Notes: generated by a model not told the origin, from the letters alone. Shown: positions 7,094 to 35,938, numbered from the stretch's first letter. The stretch: DNA of 64,000 bases from Candidatus Poribacteria bacterium (GCA_963665845.2 OY762492.1:928001-992000); one strand, 5' to 3'. Made by a program: numbers and translations.

Positions 7094-10000
7094 CTACAAC
7101 AGCTCCCCGCGCACCATCAGCGCCGACGAAACGGCGAAGTAGTCCCGCCCCGCCTCCACCCTGTCTTTCAGATAACTTAGGCTAAGGTTCAGGTCGGCGC
7201 GCACATGGCGGCTCAAACGGTATCCAAGCTGCAGCGCCGTCTGGTAACGCTCCGAGCGCTCTTCGGACTGGTCGCCGAGATTCCCGCGCCGAACGACCGC
7301 CGTCAAGTAGTTCGTCACGTTTAGGTTCTGCTCCAACTTCACAACCGTTCCGATGATCGGAACGCGCCAGCCGGACGCCGTTTTCAAGGTGTAGTCGACG
7401 CTCATGCTGGGCGTCACGATGATCGAGTTCGTTTCCACGCCGCTGCGCTCCTGGCGCCTAAAGTTGATGCGGCTGCCGAGGGACAGGCGCGTTTCGCCCA
7501 TCGTCTGCCGCCAGGTGAGCGCGCTTTCATGGGAGCGGCTGTCCCCAAAAATGGAGGCGCTGTTGGAACGCTCCGTCGTGTTGAAATTGTAGCTGAGCTG
7601 AATTGTGGAGCGTCCGCCGCGGGCGAATATCTGTGCGTCCGCCCCGGCGAGAAGCGAGTCGTCTTGAGAACCTGCGCCGACATTTTTTGTGTAGCTGTCG
7701 CGCATTGAGGCGTCCGCGCTGAGCGCGAGCCATTGAAGCGGATCGAACGACCCGCGCATCGACAGGCGGACGGAGCGCGTGGACGAGGAACGCTCCGGCG
7801 CGTCCTCCGGCATGCGCAGCGCGTCCAGGACCGTCGCGTCCAATTTCAGCCTGCGCAGATAATCGCGTATGTCGATGCTGTAATCGGCGCTGAGAGCCAG
7901 CGTGTTAACGGAGCGCTGAAACGGGTTCAGTCCGTCGTCGGCGAACCGATCGCGCCCGCCGGCAAGGGCGCGGTCCATCTGCATATTTCCCGCCCCAAGC
8001 CAGTCGGCGCGGTTCAGCTGCGCCTCCTCATAGGCGTACGGATCGTATCCGTACTGGCTCATGCGGTCGAGGCTCTCCTGCTCGCGGAAAAAATCCTCGT
8101 CCATCTCGACCGAATCGAGCGGCGGCGTATTCGATGAGCCGCTTGGCAACGGGGGAGGATTCGTTTCGGTTGACTCGTCTGTCTGCGCGGTCTCTTCAGC
8201 CGTCTCCGTTTCGGTTGAATCGTCCGTCTGCGCGGTCTCTTCAGTCGTTTCCGTTTCGGTTGACTCATCCGCCTGCGCAGTCTCTTCAGCCGTTTCCGTT
8301 TCGGTTGAATCGTCCTCATCCGCCTGCGCGGTCTCTTCAGCCGTCTCCGTTTTGGTAGAATCGTCTGTCGCGGCAGTTTCTTCTGCCGTTTCCGTTTCGG
8401 TAGAATCGTCTGTCGGCGTTGGCTCGTCAGCCGCTTCTGTTTCGGTTGAATCGTCTGTCGCGACGGTTTCTTCTGCCGTTTCCGTTTCGGTTGGCGCGGT
8501 CTCTTCAGCCGTTTCTGTTTTGGTAGAATCGTTCGCCGGTGCGGTCTCTTTTTCATCCGCTTCGGCGCCGTTTTCTATAGCAAGGGGACCGATGCCCGGT
8601 CCGTCCATCGGCTCCGTCCGCTTCGTTTCAAAACTGAAGAGCTCGGCGAGCCGAAAGGTGGCGCCGAACCGCGCGTTGAAGTTGAGCGAGATGTCTTTTT
8701 GCTGTTCAAACCAGTTCTCCCGCGCGTTCATCTGCGCCCCGATATTCGGACGCGCGCCGAAAAAAGAGCGGTTGATTGTCGGACGAAGCGACACCCGATG
8801 CCCCCGCTCCGACAACCCAAAACGCCCCTCCGATTTCCCCTCCTCCGTAGAAGACAGCGCCATCTCCCGCGTCACATCGTAGGTCGGCTGAAGGCGCAGC
8901 GACGCAAACGGGCTGAGCTGCAGACTGATCGAACCGCTGTCGATGATGCGGTCGTTCAGGCTGCTGCCGTAGTACCCGTAGTCGCCGCCGTCGGAGGCGT
9001 TCGGGTCTCCCGTTTCGCGGTCAACCCTCACATCCTCGTGCCGGTATTCGGCGTTCAACCCGAATTTGCGCGCCGCGTCGTACCGCAGCGTCGCCACGTA
9101 GAGATCGCTGAACTCGGTGCCGCGGCTTTCGTTCCAATGCTCCTGCGAGTCGTACATCACATTCAGCGAGGGCCATTTCTGAAATTGAACGCCGCCGCGC
9201 GCCGTGCGGTTGGAGACCGTATTGCGCCCCAGCTGCGCCGTCCGAATGAGGTTGTAACTCTCTTCGGTTTCGGTTTCCTGATTCCGGACGCTGTACTCCA
9301 GCGGAAGCCACCGCGCGGGCGTGAAACGCGCGTTCATACTGAAATCGTTTGCGCTCTGGCTCAACTGCTGATACCGCCTGCCGTAAGAGGAACCGGCGGG
9401 CTGCGCGGCGGACTCTTCAAACTCCTGATCTTGGCTCGACGCGCTCACCTGCACCTGCAGCAGATTTCCAAGCCGAAACTGGCTGTCCCCCCGCCGCGCC
9501 CAGCCCGACTCAACAAGCGGATCGGCGAGGTAGATGTCGTTCACCCACAGCTCGCCTTCCATCGTCTCGCCGGTCTCGTTCTGAATGCCCAGAACAACGC
9601 CGCCGACGCTTGTCAAGGAGGGCGAACCGGCGACGCGCAGCCCGTCCGGATGCCCGTCTCTGTTCTCGTCCGCTATCGATACGACCGCCTGCTTCCAGCC
9701 CGTGAAATCGATGGGGAGGGTGTATTCGTAGTAATCGACCAGCTCCTTGAACACATTCACCTTCGGCTCCTCCTTGTCGGCGCCGCTCCCAGTGTGACGG
9801 TAACTATAGGAGAAGTTGGAACGCAGCGCCGCGCTCAACCGCAGCACCAGCGACGCCCCCGTCGGACGCCCCGCCGGGTTGTAGACCCATATCTTGAGCG
9901 TCTGATGCTTGGAAAGGTCGGCGCCGTCGCCTTGGCGCGGTCCCTCAACCCGCCGCCAGGTGACGCCCAGAGAGTCGGGGTCCAACCCGTACTCCAGCGC

Positions 10001-13000
10001 GAGCGACTGCTCCCGCCGTTCCGTCACGCCGAGCTGGTACGCCGATTGAACCAGCGGATGCAGCCGTTGAAATTCGTCGTTGTCTTCGATCTGCTGATAG
10101 GCGAAGCGGTAGGAGTCGAAGTTGAAGTTGTCTTTGGCGCTGACCCGCATATATTCGCCTGTGTCGGGGCGCAGCTCGCCGTCTTTCCCGGCGACGACCC
10201 CTTGCTCCCACTGGTTGCCGACGATTTCAAGCGACGCAAACTGCAGCTTGCCCGTTATCGTCCCAGGGCGGTTTTTTTCAAGCAGAATGCGCGCCTGTTT
10301 CACAAAACCCCAGTTCGGCAGCCCGACAGGCTCCGTCTCGTTCAGCGGGATGGAGAGAAACTTCCAGCCGGTCGCCGCGTTCTCTTTCTTGATCCAGCTG
10401 TCCGGGATCGCGTTCAGCGGAACGGCGATGGTGAAATAGGAATTGAGCGTGTCCAGCGCGCTGTCGCCGTTCAAGTCCTCGGTGTCCAAGATCGTGTTGT
10501 TGGCGCCGATGCGCATGTCGGAGAGGGGTCCGTTCCAAACCCAGCCCTCATCCTCGTTCAGTTCCAGCTTGCCGTTGCCCCGAAACTTGTCCTCGTCCGA
10601 CAGATTTTCTAGGTCCAGATCCAGCAGGTCAATCACATTGTCGCCGTTCGTGTCGGTCAGGTCGGGCGGCAGGTCTTCGCTGTCGAGTCGGTTGTCGCCG
10701 TCCACATCCTCGCTGAAATGCCCGACGGCGATATGGAGCGTCGCGCTGTCGTCGCCGACGGAGCGTATCCACACCTCCAGCGATTGCCTGTTCAGATAAT
10801 CTTCTCCCTCGGCGCTGATCGGATAGGTCATCCCGCCCCACTCGGCGGAGACGTCGTTGAACAGGTACCCGATTTCGCCGATGAGCCGCTCCTCGCCGCC
10901 TCTGGGTATGCCGTCAATGGAGGAGGAGGCGACGCGCTGATTGCGGAAATAGTTGTCGGGCGGGTTGTCGTCGTCGCGCTGCTGAATCGGAAAATGAACG
11001 CGGGAGAAGTTGGACAGGCGCGGCGTTTCTGCAGGCGGCGCGGCGGTCTGCCATCGGCGTTTGAAAACCGGCATGGAGGAGGAGTCGCGCGCGCCTTCCA
11101 TGCTGTCGATGAGCGCGAGTCCGTACGAGTTCGGGTTGTTGTGGCTGAAAGCCGCCTCGCCGCTAAAATGGAGCGCGAGCGGCAACTTGCCGACATCGAC
11201 AAACGGAAGCGCGCTGACCAACCCCGACAGCTCAAAGGCGCGTCCGAGGCTTCCGTTCACATCGAACGCCTGAAGCCGCCCTGGCGTCTCGGCGATGGAT
11301 GGCGGACCGGCGGTACGCTGCCCGGCGTTGTAAATATACCCCGCCGCCAGCTGAAGCCCATCGATAAAGACAGGGTTGAAAAAACTGCCGGAGGTCAACC
11401 CGTACGCGCGGCGGGAATAGCTGCCGCCGTACGAACCGCCGTAGCTTCCCCCGTATCCGCCGTAGGAACTGCCGCCGTAACTGCTGTATGAGGAGCCGTA
11501 CGAACTGCCGCCGTATGAAGAGCCGTAGGAACTCCCATATGAGGAGCCGTACGAACTGCCGCCGTATGAGGAGCCGTACGAACTGCCGTATGAGGATCTG
11601 CCGCCGTATGAAGCGAGCGCTTGATCCAGCATATTCGACTGCGCGTCCCGCGGGTCTTCCTGCCGCTTCGGCGTCCACTCGTAGCTAAGCCAGACGCCCG
11701 CGACGGTCTGTTGAAGCGACGAGCCGAACGGGGAATACTCATACTCCACCTCCACCTCGTCAAACTCGCTCAAAGGGCGGTTGAAGGTGAGCGAGCCGAA
11801 TTCGTAAAAGATGTTGTAGTCGCCGGGCGCGAGCCGCTGTCCGTTGACGCGCACAATTTCGCTGCCGGGGATGATGTTCAGAACGTTCAGGTTGTACTCG
11901 TCCGAGCGGTAGGAGTAGGCGGCTTGAATTTGGTAGATCGGCGCGTTCGGGTTGTGCGAATCGCGGTAGAGCGCTAGGTTGGCGACCTCCTCCTGCAAAT
12001 GCGCATACGGATGCGGAGCTTCCAGCGCAAAGGGGCGCGCGTCAGGGAAAATAAGAAGCCCCTTTTCAAAGTCGATGATGAGCGAGTCGTATTGCCCGTC
12101 GCCGTCCCTGTCGTATTCGATGTCGACCCGCCCGTCGCCGTCCCTGTCCAACCCAAAAATCTGGATGTACGGGATCAGGTTGCCTGACTCGTCTTGGTGC
12201 GCCTGTTTTCCGCCTCTCCATATCGCCAGTTCAAAGTCGGTCGGGCTGATGTTGCGGTTGCCGAGGCTATATACATTCATCAGCTCCGTTCCGCGCAGCG
12301 ATTCCTGTTTTAAGACGACATGCCCGTCTTCCGCAAGCGGATTGCCCTTTTCTGGGTCCGGGTCGCCGACGGTTCCGCCGCCGGCGCCGACATACTCATA
12401 CGCGGCGACAATCTTGACGCGCGGCGACACCTGGTTGTTAAACTCAATGCGCCCCGTTTCGTAGTCGATGGCGTAATTTTCGCCGGCGTGTTGCAGGTTG
12501 AAATAACCGTCGATGGTCTGCGTCCCGGCGACATTGTTCGTTCCGTCTCTGTCATCGATATAGATGCGTTCGCTGTTGCGTTTGATGGGCAGATATTCGG
12601 GGTGTATTTCTCCATCTTCGCCGAGATGCAGCTGATAGTACTTCTGGCGGGCGAAGCTGGTGTCGGCGATCCGTCGTCCGCCGCCTCCGCCGGCGCGTCT
12701 GGACTGCCCGCTCGATTTCCATTTGCCTTTCAGCCCTTTCGTTCGGGAGCCGAAGAGCGTCGCGCGCGCGCCGCCCGCCTCGGCGACCAGCTGCGCGCCG
12801 AACAGGTTTCTGTTCATGCGCACAAAGCGCGTGTTCGGAAGTTCCAACGTGATGTCGCCAAAAGCGGCGCGCTTGACGATGTTCTCTTCTCCGCCCTCAT
12901 ACCAGACGGCGATGCGCTGCTGCTTCTCTCCGAAGCCGGTATAGGAACGCGCGGCGTCGGAATAGTCGACCGCCACATGCGTGTGCCGCCCGACGCGGCC

Positions 13001-13711
13001 GTGGATGCCGATCTGCAGCTCTTGGCGTATGTTGAACCCGTCGGCGCCACCGCCGTATCCGCCGTAGGAGGAACCGAAACCGCCGCCGTATCCGCCGTAG
13101 GAGGAACCGAAGCCGCCGCCGTATCCGCCGTAGGAGGAGCCGAAGCCGCTCCCGCCGTATCCGCCGTAGCCTCCATATCCGCCGTAAGAGCCGTAGCTGT
13201 CGTAGGAGCTGCCGTAGTCGAAATCGCGGTAGCCTGTGGAAAAACGCCCGCCGCCGAGGCTGCTGCCGTAGAGTCCGGTCAAGCCCTCGCGCCCGAAATA
13301 GTGCGTGTGGTTATACTGAAACAGGAACGATTTATGCCCCTTCACCTCTAGGCTGGAGTTGAGCGGCAGGTTGAAATTGGCGGCGCCGCCTCCTCTTCCG
13401 GCTCCTAGAGGGAGATCGCTTTCAAGTTCGGGGACGCCGCCTTCCGGAAGGGCGGCGAGCAATCCTGCCCCGTTCGTCCGCTGCGCGCGGTGATGCGAGA
13501 TCGCCGCGGCGATGAGTCTGGCGGCGTAGGAATCGCTTTCCGCTTCGCCGTCCATTTCGTCTGTTGTTTGAGAGGGTTTCCAGTCGCCGCGCGTTTCAGC
13601 GCTGGGGGCGAATTCGCGGGCGGCGTTCTCTTCATCGGTCTGGGCGGAGCATAGAAAAGCCGCGCCGAAAAGAAGCGCCGCTGCCGCCAAACGAGGCGCA
13701 AAGCATGTCAA
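7094..13711 (-). CDS. Very large SprA/Sov-like outer-membrane protein (T9SS translocon-like) with low-complexity inserts
   Basis: Signal peptide; segments recalled as SprA-like (ELMNVYSLG, IDFEKGLLIFP..RPF, NIIPGSEIVRVNG..L..GDYNIFYEFGSL, LIDSMEG, LDTEDLNGD..LDT.NSYF); alternating beta-strand pattern in the C-terminal half. Confidence 0.72.
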   Translation of the reverse strand: MTCFAPRLAAAALLFGAAFLCSAQTDEENAAREFAPSAETRGDWKPSQTTDEMDGEAESDSYAARLIAAAISHHRAQRTNGAGLLAALPEGGVPELESDLPLGAGRGGGAANFNLPLNSSLEVKGHKSFLFQYNHTHYFGREGLTGLYGSSLGGGRFSTGYRDFDYGSSYDSYGSYGGYGGYGGYGGSGFGSSYGGYGGGFGSSYGGYGGGFGSSYGGYGGGADGFNIRQELQIGIHGRVGRHTHVAVDYSDAARSYTGFGEKQQRIAVWYEGGEENIVKRAAFGDITLELPNTRFVRMNRNLFGAQLVAEAGGARATLFGSRTKGLKGKWKSSGQSRRAGGGGGRRIADTSFARQKYYQLHLGEDGEIHPEYLPIKRNSERIYIDDRDGTNNVAGTQTIDGYFNLQHAGENYAIDYETGRIEFNNQVSPRVKIVAAYEYVGAGGGTVGDPDPEKGNPLAEDGHVVLKQESLRGTELMNVYSLGNRNISPTDFELAIWRGGKQAHQDESGNLIPYIQIFGLDRDGDGRVDIEYDRDGDGQYDSLIIDFEKGLLIFPDARPFALEAPHPYAHLQEEVANLALYRDSHNPNAPIYQIQAAYSYRSDEYNLNVLNIIPGSEIVRVNGQRLAPGDYNIFYEFGSLTFNRPLSEFDEVEVEYEYSPFGSSLQQTVAGVWLSYEWTPKRQEDPRDAQSNMLDQALASYGGRSSYGSSYGSSYGGSSYGSSYGSSYGSSYGGSSYGSSYSSYGGSSYGGYGGSYGGSYGGSYSRRAYGLTSGSFFNPVFIDGLQLAAGYIYNAGQRTAGPPSIAETPGRLQAFDVNGSLGRAFELSGLVSALPFVDVGKLPLALHFSGEAAFSHNNPNSYGLALIDSMEGARDSSSMPVFKRRWQTAAPPAETPRLSNFSRVHFPIQQRDDDNPPDNYFRNQRVASSSIDGIPRGGEERLIGEIGYLFNDVSAEWGGMTYPISAEGEDYLNRQSLEVWIRSVGDDSATLHIAVGHFSEDVDGDNRLDSEDLPPDLTDTNGDNVIDLLDLDLENLSDEDKFRGNGKLELNEDEGWVWNGPLSDMRIGANNTILDTEDLNGDSALDTLNSYFTIAVPLNAIPDSWIKKENAATGWKFLSIPLNETEPVGLPNWGFVKQARILLEKNRPGTITGKLQFASLEIVGNQWEQGVVAGKDGELRPDTGEYMRVSAKDNFNFDSYRFAYQQIEDNDEFQRLHPLVQSAYQLGVTERREQSLALEYGLDPDSLGVTWRRVEGPRQGDGADLSKHQTLKIWVYNPAGRPTGASLVLRLSAALRSNFSYSYRHTGSGADKEEPKVNVFKELVDYYEYTLPIDFTGWKQAVVSIADENRDGHPDGLRVAGSPSLTSVGGVVLGIQNETGETMEGELWVNDIYLADPLVESGWARRGDSQFRLGNLLQVQVSASSQDQEFEESAAQPAGSSYGRRYQQLSQSANDFSMNARFTPARWLPLEYSVRNQETETEESYNLIRTAQLGRNTVSNRTARGGVQFQKWPSLNVMYDSQEHWNESRGTEFSDLYVATLRYDAARKFGLNAEYRHEDVRVDRETGDPNASDGGDYGYYGSSLNDRIIDSGSISLQLSPFASLRLQPTYDVTREMALSSTEEGKSEGRFGLSERGHRVSLRPTINRSFFGARPNIGAQMNARENWFEQQKDISLNFNARFGATFRLAELFSFETKRTEPMDGPGIGPLAIENGAEADEKETAPANDSTKTETAEETAPTETETAEETVATDDSTETEAADEPTPTDDSTETETAEETAATDDSTKTETAEETAQADEDDSTETETAEETAQADESTETETTEETAQTDDSTETETAEETAQTDESTETNPPPLPSGSSNTPPLDSVEMDEDFFREQESLDRMSQYGYDPYAYEEAQLNRADWLGAGNMQMDRALAGGRDRFADDGLNPFQRSVNTLALSADYSIDIRDYLRRLKLDATVLDALRMPEDAPERSSSTRSVRLSMRGSFDPLQWLALSADASMRDSYTKNVGAGSQDDSLLAGADAQIFARGGRSTIQLSYNFNTTERSNSASIFGDSRSHESALTWRQTMGETRLSLGSRINFRRQERSGVETNSIIVTPSMSVDYTLKTASGWRVPIIGTVVKLEQNLNVTNYLTAVVRRGNLGDQSEERSERYQTALQLGYRLSRHVRADLNLSLSYLKDRVEAGRDYFAVSSALMVRGELL
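8160..8560 (-). repeat. Intragenic acidic tandem repeat (DDSTETETAEETAQT-type, about 8-9 units)
   Basis: Directly visible in DNA and protein. Confidence 0.9.
11415..11625 (-). repeat. Intragenic (G)SSYG tandem repeat
   Basis: Repeated GAGCCGTACGAACTGCCG units; SSYG protein repeat. Confidence 0.9.
13050..13270 (-). repeat. Intragenic GFGSSYGGYGG (33-bp) and YGG repeats
   Basis: Three near-identical 33-bp units at about 13050-13150 plus YGG repeats. Confidence 0.9.
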
Positions 13712-14337: not shown

Positions 14338-14621
14338 TTTTTGTAGACCGTCCGCCCCTGTATCTCGATGGCGTCCACGATCGCCATGACGACCGCGTCG
14401 ACAGGCTTGTCGGCGGTCGACTTCGTGAGCCGGGCGGAGCTTCCGCCGGCGACCAGAACCACCTCTTCTTCGCCCGCGCCGACCGAGTCGATGGCGACGG
14501 CGTGCCGGTCAAGCAGGCTTCCGTCTAGGCTCATCTCTTGGACGACGAGCAGTTTTCCGCCGGCGAGCTTTTCGTCTTTTTGCGTGGCGACAATCGAACC
14601 GACCACTTTGCAGAGCGTCAT
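14334..14621 (-). CDS. BMC shell vertex (pentamer) protein, EutN/CcmL family
   Basis: VVGSIVATQKDEKL.G.KLLVV, VAIDSVGAGEEE.VLV.GGSSAR, PVDAVVMAIVD. Confidence 0.95.
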   Translation of the reverse strand: MTLCKVVGSIVATQKDEKLAGGKLLVVQEMSLDGSLLDRHAVAIDSVGAGEEEVVLVAGGSSARLTKSTADKPVDAVVMAIVDAIEIQGRTVYKK

Positions 14622-14821
14622 ATGCAGGTCTCCCGTATTTATCTTACCGCATGCGCCGCCTCATGTCTAAACAGCCGACATGCCCCAAATCAAGAATCGC
14701 GCTTAGAAGTCAATGCGCGAAAACCATACTAGGATGGATGCAGACAGCATGAGCAGTTTGCAGCGAATGTTCAAACGCTAGAGGAATAAGCCGCCCCCTT
14801 TCTGCTTGAAAGGAGCATGAC

Positions 14822-15910
14822 ATAACATTAACCTCCTTTACAAAATCGACGGCGATTCTTGCGGCGTTCAGTTTCTCGTTTCTGTTGTGCGCGTCCGCGG
14901 AAGATTATATGCCGCTGGAAGATGTGACGAAACTAGAACGACCGACCCTCTGTCTAGATCGAGATGACGGGCTGACACTCATTGACTGGGACGGACAGAA
15001 CGAACGGCTCTGGATGACAGGCGACTTCGGCGGTCCCGCCAGATTTAGCCGAGACGGGAAATACGCCTGGATAGGCGCCTTCGAAAACAACCGCTACACG
15101 CTTTTCCTTCTGGAGCTGAAAACCGGGCGGGTCGTCAATATGAGAGAGCGGCTCGACAACCTCGGTTATGAACACATCTCCATCTCCGGCGCCTGGTGGT
15201 TTCCAGACGGGAGGCGGCTCGCATGCCGCGGAAAAGACTTGAACGGCCCAAACCGAGGTCAATCGGACATTTTTCTGCTGGATTTGCGCAACGAGAAAAT
15301 AAAACAGCTCACCAATACGCCGTTCAGAGACGAGTTCTGGGCGACTGTCTCCGCGGACGGCAAGAAGATCGCTTTCAACGGTTATCCCCCCAGCGAAGAA
15401 GAAAGAGCGGAGCTGGGCATTGATCACTTTCCTGACCATCTCTATGTCATGAACTCGCACGGGGGCAGAGCCGTCAATCTAACAAACAGCGGCGCGTCCT
15501 ATGCGTACCCTGAATGGTCGCCGGACGGCAACAAAATCGCGTTCGAAGGCTCCGGCCGCCCGGTGATAAAAGAGGAGGAGGGCGGCGTTCACATCTTTAC
15601 CATCAACCCGGACGGCTCCAGCCTAGAGCGGCTCACTTTCCCCAAAGACGGCAAGTGGGCAAGGCTTGAGGACTGGTCGGCGGACAGCAAGTGGATAATT
15701 TATACGATGGAGAAAGAAGACGAATTAGGTACGTCCTGGACCCTTTACCGCATCCATATAGAGACGCGGGAGATTGTGCGCATCACTAAGGGCAACTCTG
15801 CGAGGTGGGTTTATGCAGGCAAGAGCCGCTTCCTCTCCGTCAACCCGGCGGGCAAAGAGCATACGATGTGGGCGCCGCTCAAAGAGGAGGAGGAAGGTTC
15901 CGACGAATAA
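14822..15910 (+). CDS. Secreted TolB-like (PD40) beta-propeller protein with VNPAGKEHTMWAPLK tail; start uncertain (ATA 14822 or TTG 14885)
   Basis: FSRDGK, WFPDGR, VSADGKKIAF, PEWSPDGNKIAF repeats; in-frame upstream signal-peptide-like segment; AAGGAG at 14810. Confidence 0.8.
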   Translation: MTLTSFTKSTAILAAFSFSFLLCASAEDYMPLEDVTKLERPTLCLDRDDGLTLIDWDGQNERLWMTGDFGGPARFSRDGKYAWIGAFENNRYTLFLLELKTGRVVNMRERLDNLGYEHISISGAWWFPDGRRLACRGKDLNGPNRGQSDIFLLDLRNEKIKQLTNTPFRDEFWATVSADGKKIAFNGYPPSEEERAELGIDHFPDHLYVMNSHGGRAVNLTNSGASYAYPEWSPDGNKIAFEGSGRPVIKEEEGGVHIFTINPDGSSLERLTFPKDGKWARLEDWSADSKWIIYTMEKEDELGTSWTLYRIHIETREIVRITKGNSARWVYAGKSRFLSVNPAGKEHTMWAPLKEEEEGSDE

Positions 15911-26825: not shown

Positions 26826-29054
26826 ATGAAAGCGACAGCATTTTTGATGAGCGCATCGGCGCTGTTTTTTGCGGTTTCGGCGTCGGGCGTAGATGTTCAG
26901 GTGTACGAGGACGCGATTGATCTGTCGCGCACGACGGGCAACTGGGGAACCGTTTATGCAGCCGCCTTTTCTCCCGACGGCAAGACGCTCGCGACAGGCG
27001 GCATAGACGACTCACTTGTGTTATGGGATGTTGACACAGGGCGCGCCCTGCGCCGTACCGCCGAACATGATCGGTCCATTAATGCGCTTGCGTATTCGTC
27101 CGACGGCGCGCAGCTCGCTTCCGGCGACTACGGGGGAACCATTCATATATGGGATGTTGAAACGGGCGCGCTGAAAACGACGATCGATGAACAAACGGAA
27201 GCGATTCGCTTGCTGGCGTTTCTGCCGGACGGCAAGACGCTTCTCAGCTCCTCCGGCAACGGCGCATTTCATTGGAACGCCGAGACGGGGGAACTGATCA
27301 AGCGGCTTGGCGAAGGTTCCAAAACGTACACCGAAATGACGTTATCGTCCGATGGACAAATCGCCGCCGCCGCTATAGAAGAGTTCGGAAGCGCGAACGA
27401 CGCGGTCGTATTGATCGATGTCGACACCGGCGCGTTGATGAAACAGTCATGGCGCGTCAGCTACATCCGGTCGCTTTCTTTTTCTCCCGACCGCAGACAG
27501 CTTGCCGCCGCCGGCTTCAAAGAAATAATGGTATGGGATGTGGAAACGGGCGAGAAGATCTACTCCATTGAGGACGATGCTTCCGCGTCCCAAATTCATT
27601 TTTTGCCGGACGGAGAACGGCTTGCTGTCTTGAGAAGCGCAGCCTTTTGGATTTTCGATCTCAAAACGGGGGAGCGCGTCCAGATCGCGTCCAGATCGAC
27701 CGTCTGGCCCGACATAGCGGTGTCGCTGGACGGAGAAAGAGCCGCGTTCGCCTTGGCAGGCGGCGCCGTCCAGATATGGAACCTGAACGACAGAGGTCTG
27801 CATTCAACGTTTGGCGGCGAAAACACTGGCGCGATCTATTCAGCCGCCTTTTCGCGCGACAGCAAAACGCTCGCCGTCGGCTCCGAAGACGGAGGCGTCC
27901 GCCTGTGGGATGTCCCGACGCTGCGTTTTCAACAGAAGCTCTGGAAAGTTCCGTACTCATACTTTCCCGCCGAATCGGTCGACTTTTCTAAAGACGGAAA
28001 AACGGTTCTTGGCGCCAATTTCGTGGACGCCGCTTTGTGGGATGTGGAGACGGGGCAGTTCGAAAGAGCGCTCGGAGACGAATATGGCCGCGATTTTAGA
28101 AACACCAACCCTGCCGCCTATTCGCCGGACGGAGAAACGATCGCAAGCCTTCGACACGATTACAGAACCGACGTCTCGATCATTGAGCTGCGGGACGCCG
28201 ACACCGGCGAAGCGACCAAAGAGATCGTTATAGGGCAAAGATGGCATCCACAGTCGTTCATGGACTACTCGCCCGACGGACAGACGATTGCGCTGGAAGG
28301 ATCGCTGTTTTACAACGTTGAAACGGGTCGTCTCCGAGCGACCGTCACGCACCATTCCATTCCCGATTGCTTCGCCTATTCGCCGGACGGAAAAACCTTC
28401 GCTGTCGGGCATTGGGACGGAACCGTCACGGTCTGGAACGCGCTGACGTACAAACGGATCCGGACAATTCTGACGCATCTTGACGGCGTCAATGCGGTTG
28501 CGTTTTCGCCGAACGGTCGGACGCTCGCCAGCGCCGGCGTCGACGGGTTGGTTCGGCTCTGGCGGACAGATAATGGGGCGTTGAAAGCGGTTTTGAAAGG
28601 GCATACGAGAGGGGCCGGCGCCCTTGCTTATTCGCCGGACGGGCGTTATCTCGTCAGCGGCTCCTACGACGGAACCTTGCTGCTCTGGAACGCGCGCCTA
28701 GGCGAGCAGACGCCGATTCAATGGGCGGACATACGCCTCCCAGAAAACGCAAACGCGCCCGCGGCCCCTGCTCTCTTGCAGAATTACCCAAACCCGTTCA
28801 ACCCTGAAACGTGGATCCCCTTCGACCTGGCGGAAACCTCCCGCGTCCGCATTTCCATCTACAACGGCGCGGGCAAGCTGATCCGCGCGTTAGACCTGGG
28901 GACGCTGCCGGCGGGCTACTACCGAAGCCGACAAAAAGCGGCTTACTGGGACGGACGCAACGCCCTCGGCGAACGCGCTGCCAGCGGGATCTACTTTGCG
29001 CGCATTCAAACCGATTCGTTCACGGCGCAGCGGCGCATGCTTCTTTTGAAATAA
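26826..29054 (+). CDS. Secreted WD40 protein with CTD, copy 3 (742 aa)
   Basis: MKATAFLM signal peptide; N-terminal half nearly identical to copy 1. Confidence 0.92.
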   Translation: MKATAFLMSASALFFAVSASGVDVQVYEDAIDLSRTTGNWGTVYAAAFSPDGKTLATGGIDDSLVLWDVDTGRALRRTAEHDRSINALAYSSDGAQLASGDYGGTIHIWDVETGALKTTIDEQTEAIRLLAFLPDGKTLLSSSGNGAFHWNAETGELIKRLGEGSKTYTEMTLSSDGQIAAAAIEEFGSANDAVVLIDVDTGALMKQSWRVSYIRSLSFSPDRRQLAAAGFKEIMVWDVETGEKIYSIEDDASASQIHFLPDGERLAVLRSAAFWIFDLKTGERVQIASRSTVWPDIAVSLDGERAAFALAGGAVQIWNLNDRGLHSTFGGENTGAIYSAAFSRDSKTLAVGSEDGGVRLWDVPTLRFQQKLWKVPYSYFPAESVDFSKDGKTVLGANFVDAALWDVETGQFERALGDEYGRDFRNTNPAAYSPDGETIASLRHDYRTDVSIIELRDADTGEATKEIVIGQRWHPQSFMDYSPDGQTIALEGSLFYNVETGRLRATVTHHSIPDCFAYSPDGKTFAVGHWDGTVTVWNALTYKRIRTILTHLDGVNAVAFSPNGRTLASAGVDGLVRLWRTDNGALKAVLKGHTRGAGALAYSPDGRYLVSGSYDGTLLLWNARLGEQTPIQWADIRLPENANAPAAPALLQNYPNPFNPETWIPFDLAETSRVRISIYNGAGKLIRALDLGTLPAGYYRSRQKAAYWDGRNALGERAASGIYFARIQTDSFTAQRRMLLLK

Positions 29055-29074
29055 GGTTGTTGAAAGGCTACGTT

Positions 29075-31351
29075 ATGAAAACGGCAGCATTTTTGATGAG
29101 CGCGTTGACGCTGTTTTTTGCGGCGGCGGAGGGCGGCGCGGTTCCTGTTTATGTGGAAGCGGTCACGTTGACGCGCGACACCGGCCATTGGGGAACCATC
29201 AAATCCGCCGCGTTCTCTCCTGACGGCAAGACGCTCGCAACATTCGGAGACGACGACAGCCGCGTCGTTCTATGGGACGCCGACACAGGGCGCGTCAAAA
29301 GCCGCTTCTTCGCATCTTCCGATGGTAGCGCCGCGTTTTCGCCCAACGGCGGCGAGTTCGCCCACGGCGGACAGGATGGACACATTTTCATTAGAGACGC
29401 CGAAACAGGCGAGCTGAAAGCGGAACTCGAAAAACATGAGGATTCGGTCAACGGGATTGTCTACGGGCGGGACGGCAAGACGCTTTTCAGCGCCGACTAC
29501 AAAATCATGCACTGGGATGTCGAGAAGCGGGAACTGATCAAACGGATCGGTTCCAAACTATACACTGCATTGGCGTTATCGTCCGACGGTCAAACAATCG
29601 CCGCATCCAGCTCCGTCGGCTCCGTAGGAAGATATAACTCGATCATCGACTTGATGGATGTCGACACCGGCGCGCTCAAAAAAGAGATTCCGCTTCCGGA
29701 CGTCGGTCCCATTCGATTCCTTTCCTTTTCTCCCGACGGGAAAAAGCTTGCCGCCGCCGCCCGATACGACGGGCTTATGCTGTGGGATGTAGAAACCGGC
29801 GAGCCGATCGACGCTCTAGGAGAAGACAGCGGCGACAGCGCCTATGCGGTTCAGTTTTTGCCGGACGGAGAACGGCTCGCCGCCGTCTCATACAAGGGCG
29901 CTTATGTGTATGATTTGAAAACAGGCGAACGCGTCCGCATCGCGTCCATCCCCAACGGCGCGTCTAACTGGGGCGGCAAAGCGGTCTCGCCGGACGGAAG
30001 CAGGGTCGCGCTCACCTTTCCCTTCGGCGCCGTCCAGATATGGAACCTGAACGACGGGAGCCTTCAGGCGGCGTTTGGCGGGAACGACACCGGACATATT
30101 GTTTCAGTCGCCTTTTCAAGAGACGGCAAAACGCTTGCCCTCGGCTGCGGCGACGGGAGCGTCCGCCTGTGGGATGTCCATACGCTGCGCTTTTTGCACA
30201 GGCTTTGGCTGGCTCCGTATTCTTATAAAGAAATCGAGTTGGTCGGCTTTTCTAAAGACGGCAAAACGGTTTTTGGCGCCAATTCCGTAGACATCGCCCT
30301 GTGGGATGTGGAGACGGGGCAGTTCAAAAGAGCGCTCGGAGACGAAATCGACCGTCCATTCAGAAACGCTGCCCCAGCCGTTTATTCGCCTGATGGAGAA
30401 ACGCTCGCGAGCATTCGATATGAGTACAGAAAGAAAAACGGCAGATCGTTGATTGAGCTGCGAGACGCCGACACCGGCAAATTGGCTAAAACGATCGTCG
30501 TAGGATATAGACGGTATACACAGTCGTTCATGTCCTATTCGCCCGACGGGCGGACGATTGCGCTGGCAGGCTCGATGTTTTTCAATGTTGAAACGGGTCG
30601 GCTTCGAGCGACCGTCACGCATCTTTCCAGACCCTACTGCTTCGCCTACTCTCCGGATGGACAAGCCTTCGCCGTCGGACATAGCGGCGGAAAGGTCTCG
30701 ATCTGGAATGCGCAGACCTACAAGCGGATCCGAACGATTCAGGCGCAGCCTTTCACTGACCAGACGCCTAGTTATCTTCGAGATGTCGATGCGGTTGCGT
30801 ATTCGCCGGACGGTCGGACGCTTGCCAGCGTAGGCGACGACGGGATGGTTCGGCTCTGGGGTACGGACGACGGGGAATTGAAAGCGGTGTTGAAAGGGCA
30901 TACGAGATCCATCAGTACCCTTGCATATTCGCCGGACGGGCGTTATCTCGTCACCGGCGGCTCCGACGGCTCCGCCCAGCTGTGGAACATGGGCATCAGC
31001 GGCGGCAAGCCGATTCAATGGGCGGACATACGCCGCCCAGAAGAAGCAAACGCGCCCGCGGCCCCTGCCCTCCTGCAAAATTACCCAAACCCGTTCAACC
31101 CTGAAACGTGGATCCCCTTCGACCTGGCGGAAACCTCCCGCGTCCGCATTTCCATCTACAACGGCGCGGGCAAGCTGATCCGCGCGTTAGACCTTGGGAC
31201 GATGCCGGCGGGCTACTACCGGAGCCGACAGAAAGCGGCTTACTGGGACGGACGCAACGACCTCGGCGAACGGGCGGCAAGCGGGATCTACTTTGCGCGC
31301 ATAGAGGCGGGGTCGTTCACGGCGGTTCGGCGCATGGTTCTGTTTAAATAA
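29075..31351 (+). CDS. Secreted WD40 protein with CTD, copy 4 (758 aa)
   Basis: MKTAAFLM signal peptide; WD repeats; same tail. Confidence 0.92.
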   Translation: MKTAAFLMSALTLFFAAAEGGAVPVYVEAVTLTRDTGHWGTIKSAAFSPDGKTLATFGDDDSRVVLWDADTGRVKSRFFASSDGSAAFSPNGGEFAHGGQDGHIFIRDAETGELKAELEKHEDSVNGIVYGRDGKTLFSADYKIMHWDVEKRELIKRIGSKLYTALALSSDGQTIAASSSVGSVGRYNSIIDLMDVDTGALKKEIPLPDVGPIRFLSFSPDGKKLAAAARYDGLMLWDVETGEPIDALGEDSGDSAYAVQFLPDGERLAAVSYKGAYVYDLKTGERVRIASIPNGASNWGGKAVSPDGSRVALTFPFGAVQIWNLNDGSLQAAFGGNDTGHIVSVAFSRDGKTLALGCGDGSVRLWDVHTLRFLHRLWLAPYSYKEIELVGFSKDGKTVFGANSVDIALWDVETGQFKRALGDEIDRPFRNAAPAVYSPDGETLASIRYEYRKKNGRSLIELRDADTGKLAKTIVVGYRRYTQSFMSYSPDGRTIALAGSMFFNVETGRLRATVTHLSRPYCFAYSPDGQAFAVGHSGGKVSIWNAQTYKRIRTIQAQPFTDQTPSYLRDVDAVAYSPDGRTLASVGDDGMVRLWGTDDGELKAVLKGHTRSISTLAYSPDGRYLVTGGSDGSAQLWNMGISGGKPIQWADIRRPEEANAPAAPALLQNYPNPFNPETWIPFDLAETSRVRISIYNGAGKLIRALDLGTMPAGYYRSRQKAAYWDGRNDLGERAASGIYFARIEAGSFTAVRRMVLFK

Positions 31352-31370
31352 GGCGTAGAAAGGATTCGCT

Positions 31371-33638
31371 ATGAAAGCGACAGTATTTTTAATGAGCGCG
31401 TTGACGCTGTTTTTTGCGGCGGCGGCGGAGAGCGGCGGCGTTCCTGTGTACGTGGAAGCGACCACTCTGACGCGCGACACCGGCCATTGGGGAAACATCA
31501 AATCCGCCGTTTTTTCTCCAGACGGCAAGACGCTCGCGACCGTCGGATACGACAGCCGTATCATTCTATGGGACGCCGACACAGGGCGCGTTAAAAGCCG
31601 CTTCTTCAGCCCAAACCCCCATAAAAGTCTTGCGTTTTCACCCAACGGCGCCGAGTTTGCCCACGGCGATCACAGCGAAGACATTCTCATTAGGGACGCC
31701 GAAACAGGGACGCTGAAAGCTGAACTCAAAGAACACGAGGATTCGATCCATACGCTCATCTATGGACGGGACGGCAAGACGCTTTTCAGCGCCGGCGACG
31801 GAATCCTGATGTGGGACGCCGAGAAGCGGGAACTGATCAAGAGTATTGGCGAACGTACCAATACGTACACCGCATTGACGTTATCGCCCGACGGCGAAAC
31901 AATCGCCGCCGCAATAAGAATCCGCGCCTACCTGAAAAGCGACTCCGCCATCGAATTGAGGCATGCCGATACTGGCGCGCTCAAGAAACAGATTGATCTA
32001 TCGGGCGTCTCTTCCATCAACCGCCTCTCCTTTTCTCCCGACAGCAGAAAGCTGGCGTCTGACGGCTCCAACGGGATCATAATGTGGGATGTTGAAACGG
32101 GCGGGGAAATTGGCGCCCTAGAGGAAGACAGCGGCGCCGATCTGGTTCAGTACTTGCCGGACGGAGAACGGCTTGCGTTCTTCTTAGACGGATCCTTGAT
32201 GGTCCGCGATCTCAAAACGGGGGAGCGCGTCCAAGTTATTTCCAGCCCCGCAGCCCCGTTTAGCAAGGCGATTTCGCCGGACGGGCAAAGAGCCGCGCTC
32301 AGCTTCTTTTTTGGCGCCGTCCAGGTCTGGAACCTGAACGACGGGAGCCTTCAGGCGGCGTTTGGAGGGAACGACACCGGACCTATTTATTCCGCCGCCT
32401 TTTCAAGAGACGGCAAAACGCTTGCCCTCGGCTGCGCCGACGGGGGCGTCCGCCTGTGGGATGTCCATACGCAGCGCTTGCTGCACAGGCTCTGGCAGGC
32501 GCCGTATACTTACTACCGCGTCAAATCGGTCGACTTTTCTAAAGACGGAAACACGGTTGCCGGCGCTAGTTATGTTGACATCGCTCTGTGGGATGTGGAA
32601 ACGGGGCGGTTCAAAAGAGCGCTCGGCGACGAATATAATCGTCATCACAGAAACTATGGTCCAGCCGTCTATTCGCCGGACGGAGAAACGATCGCAAGCA
32701 TTCGATACGATGACAGAGACGGCGGCCGCGTCACCATCATTGAGCTGCGAGACGCCGACACCGGCGAAGCGACCCAGGCGATCACGATCGGGGACGGATT
32801 GTATTGGCAGTCGTTCATGACCTACTCGCCCGACGGGCGGACGATTGCGTATGCAGGGTCCCAGTTCTTCAATGTTGAAACGGGGCGGCTCCGCGCAACC
32901 GTAACACATCATTCTCCCGCCTATTGCCTCGCCTATTCTCCGGACGGCGGAACCTTCGCTGTCGGGCATAGAGACGGAACGGTCGCGATCTGGAACGCGC
33001 AGACCTACAGGCGGATCCGAACGATACAGGCGCAGCCGATCACTGACCAGACGCCTAGATATTCCCGCTATGTCAATGCAGTTGCGTATTCGCCGAACGG
33101 GCGGACGCTTGCCAGCGGAGGCGTTGACGGACTGGTTCGGCTCTGGGGTACAGACAGCGGGAAGTTGAAAGCGGTTTTAAAAGGGCATGCGGGATCGGTC
33201 TATGCGCTTGCCTATTCGCCGGACGGGCGTTATCTCGTCAGCGGCGGCTCCGACGGCTCAGCTCAGCTGTGGAACATGGGCATCAACGGCGGCAAGCCGA
33301 TTCAATGGGCAGACATACGCCTCCCAGAAGAAGCAAACGCGCCCGCGGCCCCTGCCCTCCTGCAAAATTACCCAAACCCGTTCAACCCTGAAACATGGAT
33401 CCCCTTTGACCTGTCGGAAACCTCCACCGTCCGCATCGCCATCTACAACGGCGCGGGCGAGCTGATCCGCGCGTTAGACCTTGGAACGCTGCCGGCGGGC
33501 TACTATCGAAGCCGACAGAAAGCGGCTTACTGGGACGGACGCAACGACCTCGGCGAACGGGCGGCAAGCGGCGTCTACTTTGCGCGCATAGAGGCGGGAT
33601 CGTTCACGGCGCTTCGGCGCATGGTTCTGTTTAAATAA
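31371..33638 (+). CDS. Secreted WD40 protein with CTD, copy 5 (755 aa)
   Basis: MKATVFLM signal peptide; WD repeats; same tail. Confidence 0.92.
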   Translation: MKATVFLMSALTLFFAAAAESGGVPVYVEATTLTRDTGHWGNIKSAVFSPDGKTLATVGYDSRIILWDADTGRVKSRFFSPNPHKSLAFSPNGAEFAHGDHSEDILIRDAETGTLKAELKEHEDSIHTLIYGRDGKTLFSAGDGILMWDAEKRELIKSIGERTNTYTALTLSPDGETIAAAIRIRAYLKSDSAIELRHADTGALKKQIDLSGVSSINRLSFSPDSRKLASDGSNGIIMWDVETGGEIGALEEDSGADLVQYLPDGERLAFFLDGSLMVRDLKTGERVQVISSPAAPFSKAISPDGQRAALSFFFGAVQVWNLNDGSLQAAFGGNDTGPIYSAAFSRDGKTLALGCADGGVRLWDVHTQRLLHRLWQAPYTYYRVKSVDFSKDGNTVAGASYVDIALWDVETGRFKRALGDEYNRHHRNYGPAVYSPDGETIASIRYDDRDGGRVTIIELRDADTGEATQAITIGDGLYWQSFMTYSPDGRTIAYAGSQFFNVETGRLRATVTHHSPAYCLAYSPDGGTFAVGHRDGTVAIWNAQTYRRIRTIQAQPITDQTPRYSRYVNAVAYSPNGRTLASGGVDGLVRLWGTDSGKLKAVLKGHAGSVYALAYSPDGRYLVSGGSDGSAQLWNMGINGGKPIQWADIRLPEEANAPAAPALLQNYPNPFNPETWIPFDLSETSTVRIAIYNGAGELIRALDLGTLPAGYYRSRQKAAYWDGRNDLGERAASGVYFARIEAGSFTALRRMVLFK

Positions 33639-33658
33639 GGCGGTTGAAAGGATACGTT

Positions 33659-35938
33659 ATGAAAGCGGCAGCGTTTTTAATGAGCGCATTGGCGCTGTTG
33701 GTTGCGTCTTCGGCGTCGGGCGTAGATGTTCAGGTGTATGAGGACGCAATCGATCTGTCGCGCAATACAGGTCATTGGGGATCTATTACAGCAACCGCGT
33801 TTTCTCCCGACAAAAAGACGCTTGCAACAGCCGCCTACGACGACTCGATCCTGTTATGGGACGTCGACGATGGGCGCATCCGAGGCCAACTAACTGGTCC
33901 TCAAGGATATGTCAGCGCGCTTGCGTATTCCCCCGACGGCTCCGAACTTGCTGCCGGCGACTCCGATGGAACCATTCAGATTTTGGACGCTGAAACGGGC
34001 GCGCTGAAAGCGACTCTTGAACAGCATGAGAAGCGGATCGATTCGCTGGCATATAGTTCGGACGGCAAGACGCTTCTCAGCGCCGGCGACGGAATAATGG
34101 TCTGGGACGCCGAGAAAAAGGAGCTGATCAAAAGTATCGGCGAACGTACCATAACGTACAGGGAACTGACGTTTTCGTCCGACGGCAGCGCGATCGCCGG
34201 CGTTCTCAAAGCCGACATCTTCGTAAATAGAACCGGCGCTATTGAATTGTGGGATGTCGACAGCGGCGCTCTCAAGAGGCGGATCGATCCAACGCATATC
34301 GACAACATCCGGTCGCTCTCTTTTTCTTCCGACAGCAGAACGCTTGCCGCCGCCGGTTTTCTCGGGATCAGGTTGTGGGATGTTGAAACCGGCGCGCCGA
34401 TCAACGCCTTAGAGGAATACAGCAGCGTCAGCGTCAGGAAGGTACATTTTTTGCCGGACGGGAAACGGATCGCGCTCTTTATTGGCAGATCAATTTATAC
34501 GCTTGATCTGAACACAGGCGAGCGGTTCCTCGTCATGACCAGCTTGATGACCTCAACCAGCGAGTCCATTTCGCTGGACGGAGAACGGGTCGCGCTCGGT
34601 TTTGGGGACGCCTCCGTTCAAATCTGGAACCTGAACGACAGGAGCCTGCATGCGGCGTTCGAATGCGACAATACAGGACCTGTTTGCTCTGCCGCTTTTT
34701 CGCGCGACGGCAAAACGCTCGCGGTCGGCTCCTATGACGGAAGCGTCCGCCTGTGGGATGTCCCGACGCTGCGCTTCCTGCACAAGCTCTGGCAGGCTCC
34801 ATATTCAAATCATTCTATCGATTTTTCTAAAGACGGAAAAACCGTCCTAGGCGCCAATTATACTGACGTCGCCCTGTGGGATGTGGAAACTGGACAATTT
34901 AAAAGAGCGTTCAATGTCGAACCCGGCAATGTAGAAAAATATGTCGCTCCGGCTGCCTATTCGCCGGATGGAAAAACGATCGCAAGCATTCGATATGTTT
35001 ACAGGGACACCGGCGTCAGAGATGTCATTGAGCTTCAGGACGCCGACACCGGCGAGACGATCCAACAGATATCGATCGGGGGCGGGTTTTATTCACGGGG
35101 ACTCATGGACTACTCGCCGGACGGGCGGACGATTGCGCTTGCGGGTTCGCTGTTTTATAACGTTGAAACGGGGCGGCTCCGAGCGACTGTCACGCACCAT
35201 TCCATTCCCGATTGCTTCGCGTATTCGCCGGACGGCGGAGCCTTCGCTGTCGGACATCGAGACGGAACGATCACCATCTGGAACGCGCAGACCTACAAGC
35301 GGATCCGGACGATCCAGGCGCATCCCGTCTATAACCATGCGCCTAGATATATCCGCTACGTTGAAGCGGTTGCGTATTCGCCGGACGGTCAGACGCTCGC
35401 CAGCGGGGGCGACGACGGGCTGGTTCGGCTCTGGCAGACTGAAACGGGCGGGCTGAAAGCGATTTTGAAAGGGCATACGAGATGGGTTGAGGCGCTCGCG
35501 TATTCGCCGGACGGGCGTTATCTTGTCAGCGGCTCCTACGACGGAACCCTGCTGCTCTGGAACATGCGCCGAGGCGAACAGACGCCGATTCAATGGGCGG
35601 ACATACGCCTCCCAGAAGAAGCGCCGGAAGACGCAAACGCGCCTGCGGCCCCTGCCCTCCTGCAAAATTACCCAAACCCGTTCAACCCTGAAACGTGGAT
35701 CCCCTTCGACCTGGCGGAAACCTCCGCCGTCCGCATTTCCATCTACAACGGCGCGGGCGAGATGATTCGCAAATTAGACCTTGGGACGATGCCGGCGGGC
35801 TACTACCGAAGCCGACAAAAAGCGGCTTACTGGGACGGACGCAACGACCTCGGCGAACGGGCGGCAAGCGGGATCTACTTTGCGCGCATAGAGGCGGGGT
35901 CGTTCACGGCGGTTCGGCGCATGTTCCTTTTAAAATGA
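33659..35938 (+). CDS. Secreted WD40 protein with CTD, copy 6 (759 aa)
   Basis: MKAAAFLM signal peptide; WD repeats; same tail. Confidence 0.92.
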   Translation: MKAAAFLMSALALLVASSASGVDVQVYEDAIDLSRNTGHWGSITATAFSPDKKTLATAAYDDSILLWDVDDGRIRGQLTGPQGYVSALAYSPDGSELAAGDSDGTIQILDAETGALKATLEQHEKRIDSLAYSSDGKTLLSAGDGIMVWDAEKKELIKSIGERTITYRELTFSSDGSAIAGVLKADIFVNRTGAIELWDVDSGALKRRIDPTHIDNIRSLSFSSDSRTLAAAGFLGIRLWDVETGAPINALEEYSSVSVRKVHFLPDGKRIALFIGRSIYTLDLNTGERFLVMTSLMTSTSESISLDGERVALGFGDASVQIWNLNDRSLHAAFECDNTGPVCSAAFSRDGKTLAVGSYDGSVRLWDVPTLRFLHKLWQAPYSNHSIDFSKDGKTVLGANYTDVALWDVETGQFKRAFNVEPGNVEKYVAPAAYSPDGKTIASIRYVYRDTGVRDVIELQDADTGETIQQISIGGGFYSRGLMDYSPDGRTIALAGSLFYNVETGRLRATVTHHSIPDCFAYSPDGGAFAVGHRDGTITIWNAQTYKRIRTIQAHPVYNHAPRYIRYVEAVAYSPDGQTLASGGDDGLVRLWQTETGGLKAILKGHTRWVEALAYSPDGRYLVSGSYDGTLLLWNMRRGEQTPIQWADIRLPEEAPEDANAPAAPALLQNYPNPFNPETWIPFDLAETSAVRISIYNGAGEMIRKLDLGTMPAGYYRSRQKAAYWDGRNDLGERAASGIYFARIEAGSFTAVRRMFLLK

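Follow-up and report, generated by a model that had tools for sequence, protein, structure and literature searches.

The stretch of DNA analysed here (the window) comprises 64,000 nucleotides of a Candidatus Poribacteria genome (GCA_963665845.2, OY762492.1:928001-992000) and corresponds to G000:C1:928001-992000, where G000 denotes the host genome (3.98 Mb, 90% complete) and C1 one of its contigs; positions without a contig name are counted from the first letter of the window. The region 7094 to 35938 encodes a very large relative of SprA/Sov, the translocon of type IX secretion systems (T9SS), together with seven beta-propeller proteins that carry signal-like N-termini and conserved C-terminal tails. 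An earlier note on this DNA had proposed a T9SS-like export system outside Bacteroidota, consisting of a SprA-like translocon and locally encoded tagged cargo. The genes it described are all present: the 2205-aa signal-bearing protein with a strand-rich C-terminal half, six propeller proteins with an Ig-like tail of the YPNPFNP..WDGRN type, and a seventh with a VNPAGKxxTxWxxLK tail. The features are:

7094-13711, minus strand: SprA/Sov-like outer-membrane translocon, 2205 aa, single copy, matched by TIGR04189 and PF14349
14822-15910, plus strand: PD40 beta-propeller protein (PF07676) with signal-like N-terminus, ATA start and short tail
15836-15883, plus strand: the short tail of this protein, SVNPAGKEHTMWAPLK, class SVxPxGKxxxxWxxLK
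22133-24403, plus strand: WD40 cargo 1, 756 aa, with signal, propellers, W-motif linker and Ig-type tail
24472-26757, plus strand: WD40 cargo 2, 761 aa, with WD40 repeats, signal-like N-terminus and tail
26826-29054, plus strand: WD40 cargo 3, 742 aa, TIGR04183 score of 23.7 bits for the full open reading frame (ORF)
29075-31351, plus strand: WD40 cargo 4, 758 aa, TIGR04183 score of 24.7 bits for the full ORF
31371-33638, plus strand: WD40 cargo 5, 755 aa, with WD40 repeats, signal-like N-terminus and tail
33659-35938, plus strand: WD40 cargo 6, 759 aa, with WD40 repeats, signal-like N-terminus and tail
35585-35608, plus strand: W-motif PIQWADIR of cargo 6, which resembles the second half of the short tail
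35645-35938, plus strand: Ig-type C-terminal domain of cargo 6, modelled and co-folded with a PorV-family protein

The 2205-aa frame is open, starts at a TTG codon with a GGAG site ahead of it and overlaps the stop of the upstream 5-formyl-tetrahydrofolate cyclo-ligase gene by 4 nt; its product has a hydrophobic signal-like N-terminus, low-complexity stretches of Ser/Tyr/Gly and an insert of acidic repeats at residues ~1700-1870. TIGR04189 matches it in three stretches (E-value 1.4e-53, 181.7 bits, cut-off 200), and PF14349 with 36.6 bits, above its cut-off of 27. A profile of 44 sequences including distant relatives matched Flavobacterium johnsoniae SprA (6H3I/6H3J, residues 145-1891) with an E-value of 3e-148. 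The whole protein exceeds our modelling limit of 1200 residues and only its C-terminal half, residues 1100-2205, was modelled with AlphaFold (mean predicted local distance difference test score, pLDDT, of 70; acidic insert disordered). The model contains 26 strands of at least 10 residues arranged in hairpins (manual count), and Foldseek reported SprA chains on ranks 1-4 (E-values 2e-19 to 2e-14; next match 2e-5); in the VIA comparison the SprA alignments were the longest (680-708 residues, chain 1259-2401, reaching the C-terminus). The similarity to SprA, which the earlier note had drawn from motifs, is thus recovered by profiles, by the intermediate profile and by the predicted structure, with the reservations that the TIGR04189 score remains below the cut-off and that, of the very large barrel foreseen in the note, a barrel fold is predicted for the C-terminal half. 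Judged by its sequence, the protein is a full-length SprA homologue, and its gene occupies one locus only in G000.

All named close homologues of the 2205-aa protein come from Candidatus Poribacteria, as do the named homologues of one PorV protein and of the Ig-type tail discussed below, and G000 is therefore taken as a member of this phylum, i.e. of a lineage outside Bacteroidota as originally proposed. A sprA match was found in 120 of 121 genomes of the phylum (the missing one is 81% complete); among the carriers is a record named WGA-3G, which by its name we take to be the single-cell genome of Kamke et al. 2014. Of 91 Elusimicrobiota genomes, 86 also contain a SprA relative, ~1700-1900 aa long. 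A tree built with FastTree from 41 SprA sequences (1298 columns, without outgroup or clade test) groups the Poribacteria proteins in a single clade; together with Elusimicrobiota, Aerophobetes and a few records with odd labels, they are set apart from the sequences of the Fibrobacteres-Chlorobi-Bacteroidetes (FCB) group by a branch with support of 1.0. This speaks against a recent transfer from Bacteroidota, with no direction indicated by the tree. No RNA datasets carrying the sprA locus were listed.

The six tandem WD40 genes all end in the tail NYPNPFNPETW..WDGRN; type A C-terminal domains (CTDs) of T9SS cargo start with a YPNP motif. The likely starts give proteins of 742-761 aa with signal-like N-termini, while in five of the six listed ORFs the start is placed further upstream, in four cases within the gene before. 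The last 300 nt of the six genes are 89-95% identical, which indicates one recent tandem expansion and not six independent cases. TIGR04183 (cut-off 23) is passed by two of the six full ORFs and by both isolated tails analysed (cargo 1: 26.0 bits; cargo 6: 25.9 bits), and the cargo 6 tail scores 36.1 bits with PF13860 (FlgD_ig) and 26.9 bits with PF18962, just below the cut-off of 27. The predicted structure of this tail (pLDDT >90 in the domain) has the PorU CTD as its top Foldseek match, and in the VIA comparison the PorU CTD is tied for the top (Z 9.8, root-mean-square deviation (rmsd) 2.8, 91 aligned residues; PorZ CTD: 8.8; mirolase CTD: 8.2). The assignment of the tails to the T9SS type thus found support in both profiles and predicted fold. 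Directly after the array lies the gene of a 1264-aa HEAT-repeat lipoprotein (36577-40371, minus strand, PF13646). At 55093-57459 (plus strand) the window encodes a further WD40 protein, which lacks both a signal-like N-terminus and a tail and thus contrasts naturally with the array.

Contig C1 encodes 61 proteins with Ig-type tails, 45 canonical and 16 divergent; contigs C2 and C3 look like low-quality duplicate assemblies and were left out of the tail counts. The tails are strictly C-terminal and are found on unrelated signal-bearing proteins: a crude signal-peptide rule, positive for 467 of 1875 long frames as background, is positive for 39 of the 45 canonical Ig-tail proteins and for 92 of the 113 short-tail proteins described below.

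The window contains no porK, porL, porM, porN or porV genes, as had been noted earlier, but relatives of PorV and PorU are encoded elsewhere in the genome. The PorV family has 12 matches in G000 (15 ORFs with our own profile), five of them above the NF033709 cut-off; the profile of one matched F. johnsoniae PorV in the PDB with an E-value of 2.5e-24, and the carriers also match TIGR03519 (PorP/SprF) weakly (20-25 bits). Members were found in all 52 genomes of a SprA-bearing panel, comprising 27 Poribacteria (four of them single contigs, 98-99% complete), 21 genomes of other lineages and 4 Prevotellaceae as controls. Two PorU-like ORFs of ~2000 aa contain a C25 domain (PF01364, 253 and 294 bits) and a tail of their own, and one of the genes is directly followed by a PorV-family gene. 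Both hold His-Gly and Cys motifs, presumably the catalytic pair. PorU-like proteins occur in 44 of the 52 genomes, including 27/27 Poribacteria, with none in the Elusimicrobiota or Aerophobetes genomes of the panel. Contig C3 duplicates the region of the second PorU-like gene as many short frames, and C2 is fragmented too. Among other barrels of G000 we observed two PorV-family members, one with a fused SPOR domain and one with a fused lytic transglycosylase domain (G000:C1:2940669-2942906, minus strand, and C1:789330-790847, plus strand) and a BamG-like barrel (G000:C1:2162401-2163771, minus strand; NF053685, E-value 3.5e-13, below the cut-off).

Co-folding of the cargo 6 tail with the PorV-family protein G000:C1:3740834-3741820, chosen as the best scorer against the Bacteroidota PorV model, gave a score of 0.88, compared with 0.02 for the best of three controls (contacts agree by at least 98%, partner pLDDT 92); 116 of 157 solved complexes attain the co-folding mark, as do 2 of 215 mismatched pairs. 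The high score may reflect likeness, as similar PorV-CTD complexes have already been solved. The predicted interface involves the strand bearing YPNP and also the final strand, whose Arg92 may, judged by its position, be the counterpart of the conserved Lys described in PMC10994853; the modelled protein is one among several paralogues, and the true partner could be another. Independently of modelling, a PorV-family gene lies within 1.3 kb of 6 of the 16 divergent tails and of none of the 45 canonical ones (p 1.4e-4).

The search for the T9SS motor gave a different picture. Sequence profiles of GldM and GldN detected nothing at E 0.001 in 27 Poribacteria and in the 21 other non-Prevotellaceae genomes, and detected 4/4 controls, while GldL above the cut-off was absent from the 27 Poribacteria and present only in the four Prevotellaceae across the panel. 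Three weak GldL matches fall in long unrelated frames, one of them (22 bits) in a 1155-aa frame of a Poribacteria genome. GldK yielded only partial matches in G000 (85 bits, cut-off 350); the two best have no signal-like N-termini, and the N-terminus of one we take to be J-domain-like. With GldL, GldM and GldN not found and GldK matched only in part, the Poribacteria system falls outside the systems defined by the motor hub. The earlier note had suggested a divergent or minimal SprA-based pathway and a genome-wide search for PorV, PorU and GldKLMN. That search returned PorV and PorU-like proteins, and the divergent pathway is supported by relatives of SprA, PorV and PorU alongside undetectable GldL/M/N, whereas a machine of SprA alone is contradicted by the PorV-family and PorU-like proteins of G000 and of all 27 Poribacteria.

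Two candidates for a hidden motor in G000 were rejected: a weak GldL match with two MotA matches falls in a Zorya-like cluster, the GldL match being a ZorA-like coiled coil, and a weak GldM match (E-value 0.2) sits in a WD40 cargo frame. The cluster (G000:C1:1316798-1326777, minus strand) encodes what we take to be three MotA-type proteins with long coiled-coil tails and weak PF01618 matches, four MotB/OmpA-type proteins and an HNH protein.

We consider it probable that the SprA, PorV and PorU relatives act together in an export route resembling type IX secretion that does not draw on the known motor for power, and that the Poribacteria system functions much like the outer-membrane half of T9SS; the ~60 tail-tagged proteins of G000 are likely to be exported through such a differently powered machine. 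A number of observations weigh against this interpretation. All three parts score below their specific NCBIfam cut-offs (SprA: 181.7, cut-off 200; PorV: best 70.9, NF033710 equivalog cut-off 250, reached by no G000 member; PorU: 320, NF033707 cut-off 420). PDB searches with the single 2205-aa sequence and with a profile of 27 close homologues reported no match, so that the solved SprA is reached only through intermediates. At the level of fold the match is coarse (template modelling (TM) score 0.33, rmsd 11-13), in the VIA comparison MtrB and CymA rank ahead by Z with SprA sixth (Z 15.7, rmsd 11.1), and 26 strands, from a model without the N-terminal half, are to be compared with the 36-strand SprA barrel. 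Full-length PorZ was not found in G000, matches being confined to the tail region. Many unrelated Ig folds lie within 1-2 Z of the top match of the tail, tied with the PorU CTD, and by sequence the tail is nearer to flagellar FlgD than to the solved T9SS CTDs. The motor controls are close Bacteroidota, so the sensitivity of the profiles to deep homologues is not proven. Finally, in F. johnsoniae, according to the accessible part of PMC10994853, cargo loads without energy but stays trapped on SprA once the motor is removed; a motor-less route would thus need another energy source.

The last point, the divergence of the other parts below their cut-offs and the 90% completeness of G000 would all suit a conventional T9SS in which GldK/L/M/N motor-hub genes exist but have diverged beyond the reach of the TIGRFAM profiles. 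We regard this as rather improbable, as GldM and GldN go unmatched even in the four Poribacteria genomes that are 98-99% complete, SprA, PorV and PorU were by contrast detected at very low E-values, and the G000 matches to GldL and GldK have the ZorA-like character and the lack of signal-like N-termini described above.

The clustering of cargo genes near sprA, part of the earlier proposal of local cargo, is no greater than expected by chance: placed at random, a 6.6-kb segment would have an Ig-tail locus no more than 10 kb away in 27% of cases and a short-tail locus in 41%. In favour of sprA and the neighbouring propeller genes being one co-inherited secretion locus, an array of at least five cargo genes lies within 10 kb of a random position in only 3.6% of cases (a post hoc figure). 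Yet housekeeping genes (ilvC, ilvD and an aminotransferase) intervene on the other strand, the array itself arose by tandem expansion in recent times, and the neighbours of sprA vary across the phylum, with an Ig-tail gene nearby in 2 of 33 related Poribacteria loci (flanks of up to 10 kb) and a PorV gene in 1 of 33. A single locus of this kind is thus largely refuted and highly improbable; local linkage was rejected and the proximity is incidental. In 12 non-Poribacteria loci sprA lies near a divergently oriented pair of membrane-protein genes that look to us like lptF/lptG, and in Elusimicrobiota a gene of a tail-bearing protease-like protein and porV adjoin such lptF/lptG-like genes near sprA.

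Matches to FlgD-type tails number 20-85 for the 27 Poribacteria, against 4-86 for the 21 other genomes without a motor and 0-1 for the four Prevotellaceae; the tails are expanded in every one of the 48 motor-less genomes with SprA. Within Elusimicrobiota the tail is absent from 4 of 5 SprA-negative genomes and from 2 of 10 hand-picked small SprA-positive ones (p 0.09); the fifth SprA-negative genome, with 6 tails and 15 PorV matches, may represent an assembly gap. Three Elusimicrobiota genomes tested have PorV and tails with no PorU and no motor, an even smaller parts list. The co-occurrence of SprA-like genes and tails, a check named by the earlier note, receives weak support from these counts; tails common in genomes lacking SprA, which would have spoken against the proposal, were not observed in what is a weak test with five SprA-negative genomes.

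These data also bear on the possibility that the SprA relative has another envelope role and that the tails are structural FlgD-like Ig domains, for instance for surface-layer or scaffold binding. The closeness of the tail to FlgD, the lack of linkage of sprA to cargo, PorV and PorU genes, and the putative lptF/lptG pair beside sprA in the 12 loci outside Poribacteria are compatible with such a role. It is difficult to reconcile with tails that are strictly C-terminal on unrelated signal-bearing proteins and present on the PorU-like proteins themselves, with the pairing of divergent tails and PorV genes, with the co-folded complex, or with the distribution just described (all 48 motor-less genomes; present in 8 of 10 SprA-positive Elusimicrobiota), and we consider it improbable, somewhat more so than a diverged motor.

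If the export route indeed operates without GldLM, a phylum-wide Ton-type operon is a tentative candidate for its energiser:

G000:C1:2371966-2378228, plus strand: ExbB-ExbD-ExbD operon encoding a 1150-aa lipoprotein-like, barrel-like protein, ExbB and two ExbD proteins

The gene of the 1150-aa protein, an uncharacterized protein with Asp-rich repeats, is present in 27/27 Poribacteria (one partial), exbB comes after it in 24/24 loci, and the operon ExbB carries an extra carboxypeptidase-regulatory-like (periplasmic) domain. The 1150-aa protein has no match in PDB, Pfam or NCBIfam; its look-alikes in the Atlas are unnamed Gemmatimonadota and Latescibacterota proteins, and the idea that it is a half-size SprA found no support (hhalign probability 1.2% and 3.3%). 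A 790-aa paralogue shows a weak SlpA barrel match (PF21620). In 4 of 10 other genomes its gene adjoins one of the PorV family, in three of them together with a tail-bearing gene that encodes an F5/8-domain protein; in G000 (C1:1504226-1509336) it is one gene away from a PorV-family gene, with a DNA-methylase-like gene between them. This association is a genetic thread and not a demonstration. No TonB-like neighbour of the operon was found in 10/10 wider loci (BLAST against G000), no physical tie between operon and SprA was seen, which counts against the connection, and Ton-type motors serve many other roles. Among the candidate sources of energy for the SprA route the operon ranks first, at well below even odds. 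G000 has three TonB-domain genes (frames of 284-341 aa, without a long TPR part), and at G000:C1:1464541-1468806 (minus strand) one such gene is followed by two TPR-like lipoproteins; a SprE-like or Tol-Pal-like module is possible.

The short tail represents, as far as sequence can tell, a genome-wide class separate from the Ig-type tail. The PD40 protein of the window ends in VNPAGKEHTMWAPLK and scores 36.4 bits with the short-tail profile. The reading of its signal-like N-terminus opens with ATA (14822), a codon in whose place a paralogue encodes Met; contigs of 4/4 public runs (one study) confirmed this ATA, which may be a rare start or mark a decaying copy. The ATA sits behind a good ribosome-binding site. 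In G000 113 proteins carry the short tail, always within 25 residues of the stop and with no internal match of 12 bits or more; the carriers are unrelated small proteins (LamG, CBM4/9, CBM9-like, PD40), all in frames below 500 aa. No sorting-domain match was found for four of them against NCBIfam, for seven against Pfam, or for the window protein. The tail is present in 27/27 Poribacteria (lower bounds of at least 9-128 matches each) and in 0/25 non-Poribacteria genomes, by a narrow model built on G000 that could miss diverged relatives. A W-motif resembling its second half precedes the Ig-type tail in 17 of the 45 canonical proteins, including all six window cargoes, and in one near-canonical protein. 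Packing of this motif onto the Ig-type tail in cis was considered and not seen in the model, which has low confidence there. Cleavage of the Ig-type tail would leave the W-motif at the new C-terminus, and we therefore suggest, as a possibility falling somewhat short of an even chance, that the short W-tail is a docking or retention peptide and not itself an export signal. Elsewhere in the window, a lipoprotein at 60430-62115 (minus strand) has three tandem domains that we take to be glutathione-peroxidase-like.

We propose the following scheme. Cargo with signal-like N-termini would cross the inner membrane by Sec, after which the Ig-type tail is predicted to bind the PorV loops through its YPNP-bearing strand and its final strand, which has a conserved Arg, probably with PorV docked at SprA's side opening, by analogy with the solved F. 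johnsoniae complexes. PorV would then bring the folded cargo to the surface; as the gene pattern suggests, divergent tails likely use an adjoining private PorV and the 45 canonical tails likely share one. The PorU-like C25 protease would likely cut the tail and then release or anchor the cargo. Energy for extraction could come from the ExbB-ExbD-ExbD motor, the foremost of our candidates though itself doubtful, or else from an unrecognized motor or from none. The short W-tail, of which the related W-motif would be left at the new C-terminus after cleavage of the Ig-type tail, would most plausibly act as a docking or retention peptide. We also speculate, with a good deal less confidence, that the Poribacteria type IX system is ancestral and predates GldLM, that SprA and a dozen PorV proteins are energised by ExbB-ExbD-ExbD with the 1150-aa lipoprotein, and that the 16-residue W-tail is a new export or docking signal on more than 100 small proteins per genome.

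Kamke et al. 2014 (PMC3909097) described poribacterial WD40 proteins with TIGR04183 tails and, in the portion of the article available, reported no structural genes and left the pathway open; relatives of SprA, PorV and PorU are now found, also in the WGA-3G record. Eukaryote-like surface proteins of this phylum, a dominant group of sponge symbionts, thereby gain the machinery that the 2014 work could not find, and the proposed route, if true, would answer a question left open for Poribacteria since 2014. According to an excerpt of PMC11285876, T9SS genes are absent beyond the FCB phyla and Poribacteria are not listed; the SprA relatives of Poribacteria and of 86/91 Elusimicrobiota contradict such a boundary. 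A 2026 preprint names, in the passage accessible, an expressed Poribacteria SprA in passing, and in NCBI records the labels T9SS type A sorting or PorV/PorQ family are already attached to some proteins of Poribacteria. The literature passages searched contain no account of a motor-less SprA-PorV-PorU set in Poribacteria; most subscription journals lay outside this search, and the short-tail motif was not part of it. Current models hold the GldLM motor to be essential for pulling cargo off SprA; a phylum that keeps SprA, PorV and PorU without this motor makes it testable which motor-independent or alternative energy step is used and whether the translocon predates the motor. The short tail gives a name to a large unexplained class of proteins, with concrete candidate readers.

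Compared with known systems, the Poribacteria set shares with the Bacteroidota T9SS (F. johnsoniae SprA-PorV, PDB 6H3I, 8GL6, 8GL8; P. gingivalis Sov, PorV, PorU) near-full-length SprA homology, PorV-family carriers, a gene of a PorU-like C25 protease followed by porV, cargo with a Sec signal and a C-terminal Ig beta-sandwich starting with YPNP, and the predicted tail-PorV interface. It differs in that neither GldL/M/N nor full-length PorZ was detected, in its 12-15 PorV-family genes instead of 2-3, in duplicated PorU-like proteins of ~2000 aa, in a longer, FlgD-like tail with a WDG motif accompanied by a second, short class of tail, and in a SprA that lies on a separate branch with Elusimicrobiota and Aerophobetes. 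T9SS-type tails outside Bacteroidota are shared with Fibrobacter (PMC6851124) and Cloacimonadota (PMC8542988), both listed in PMC11285876, where T9SS use was proposed, in the excerpts at hand, from tails and not from an inventory of the machine. The closest parallel to the divergent tails is offered by the F. johnsoniae pairs of type B cargo and PorP/SprF shuttle (PMC12618676, as far as the accessible text describes them), in which a cargo gene likewise adjoins its own carrier barrel, as do 6 of the 16 divergent-tail genes here; unlike those pairs, the Poribacteria carriers score as PorV family and only weakly as PorP/SprF, and most of the tails are YPNP-like and not of type B.

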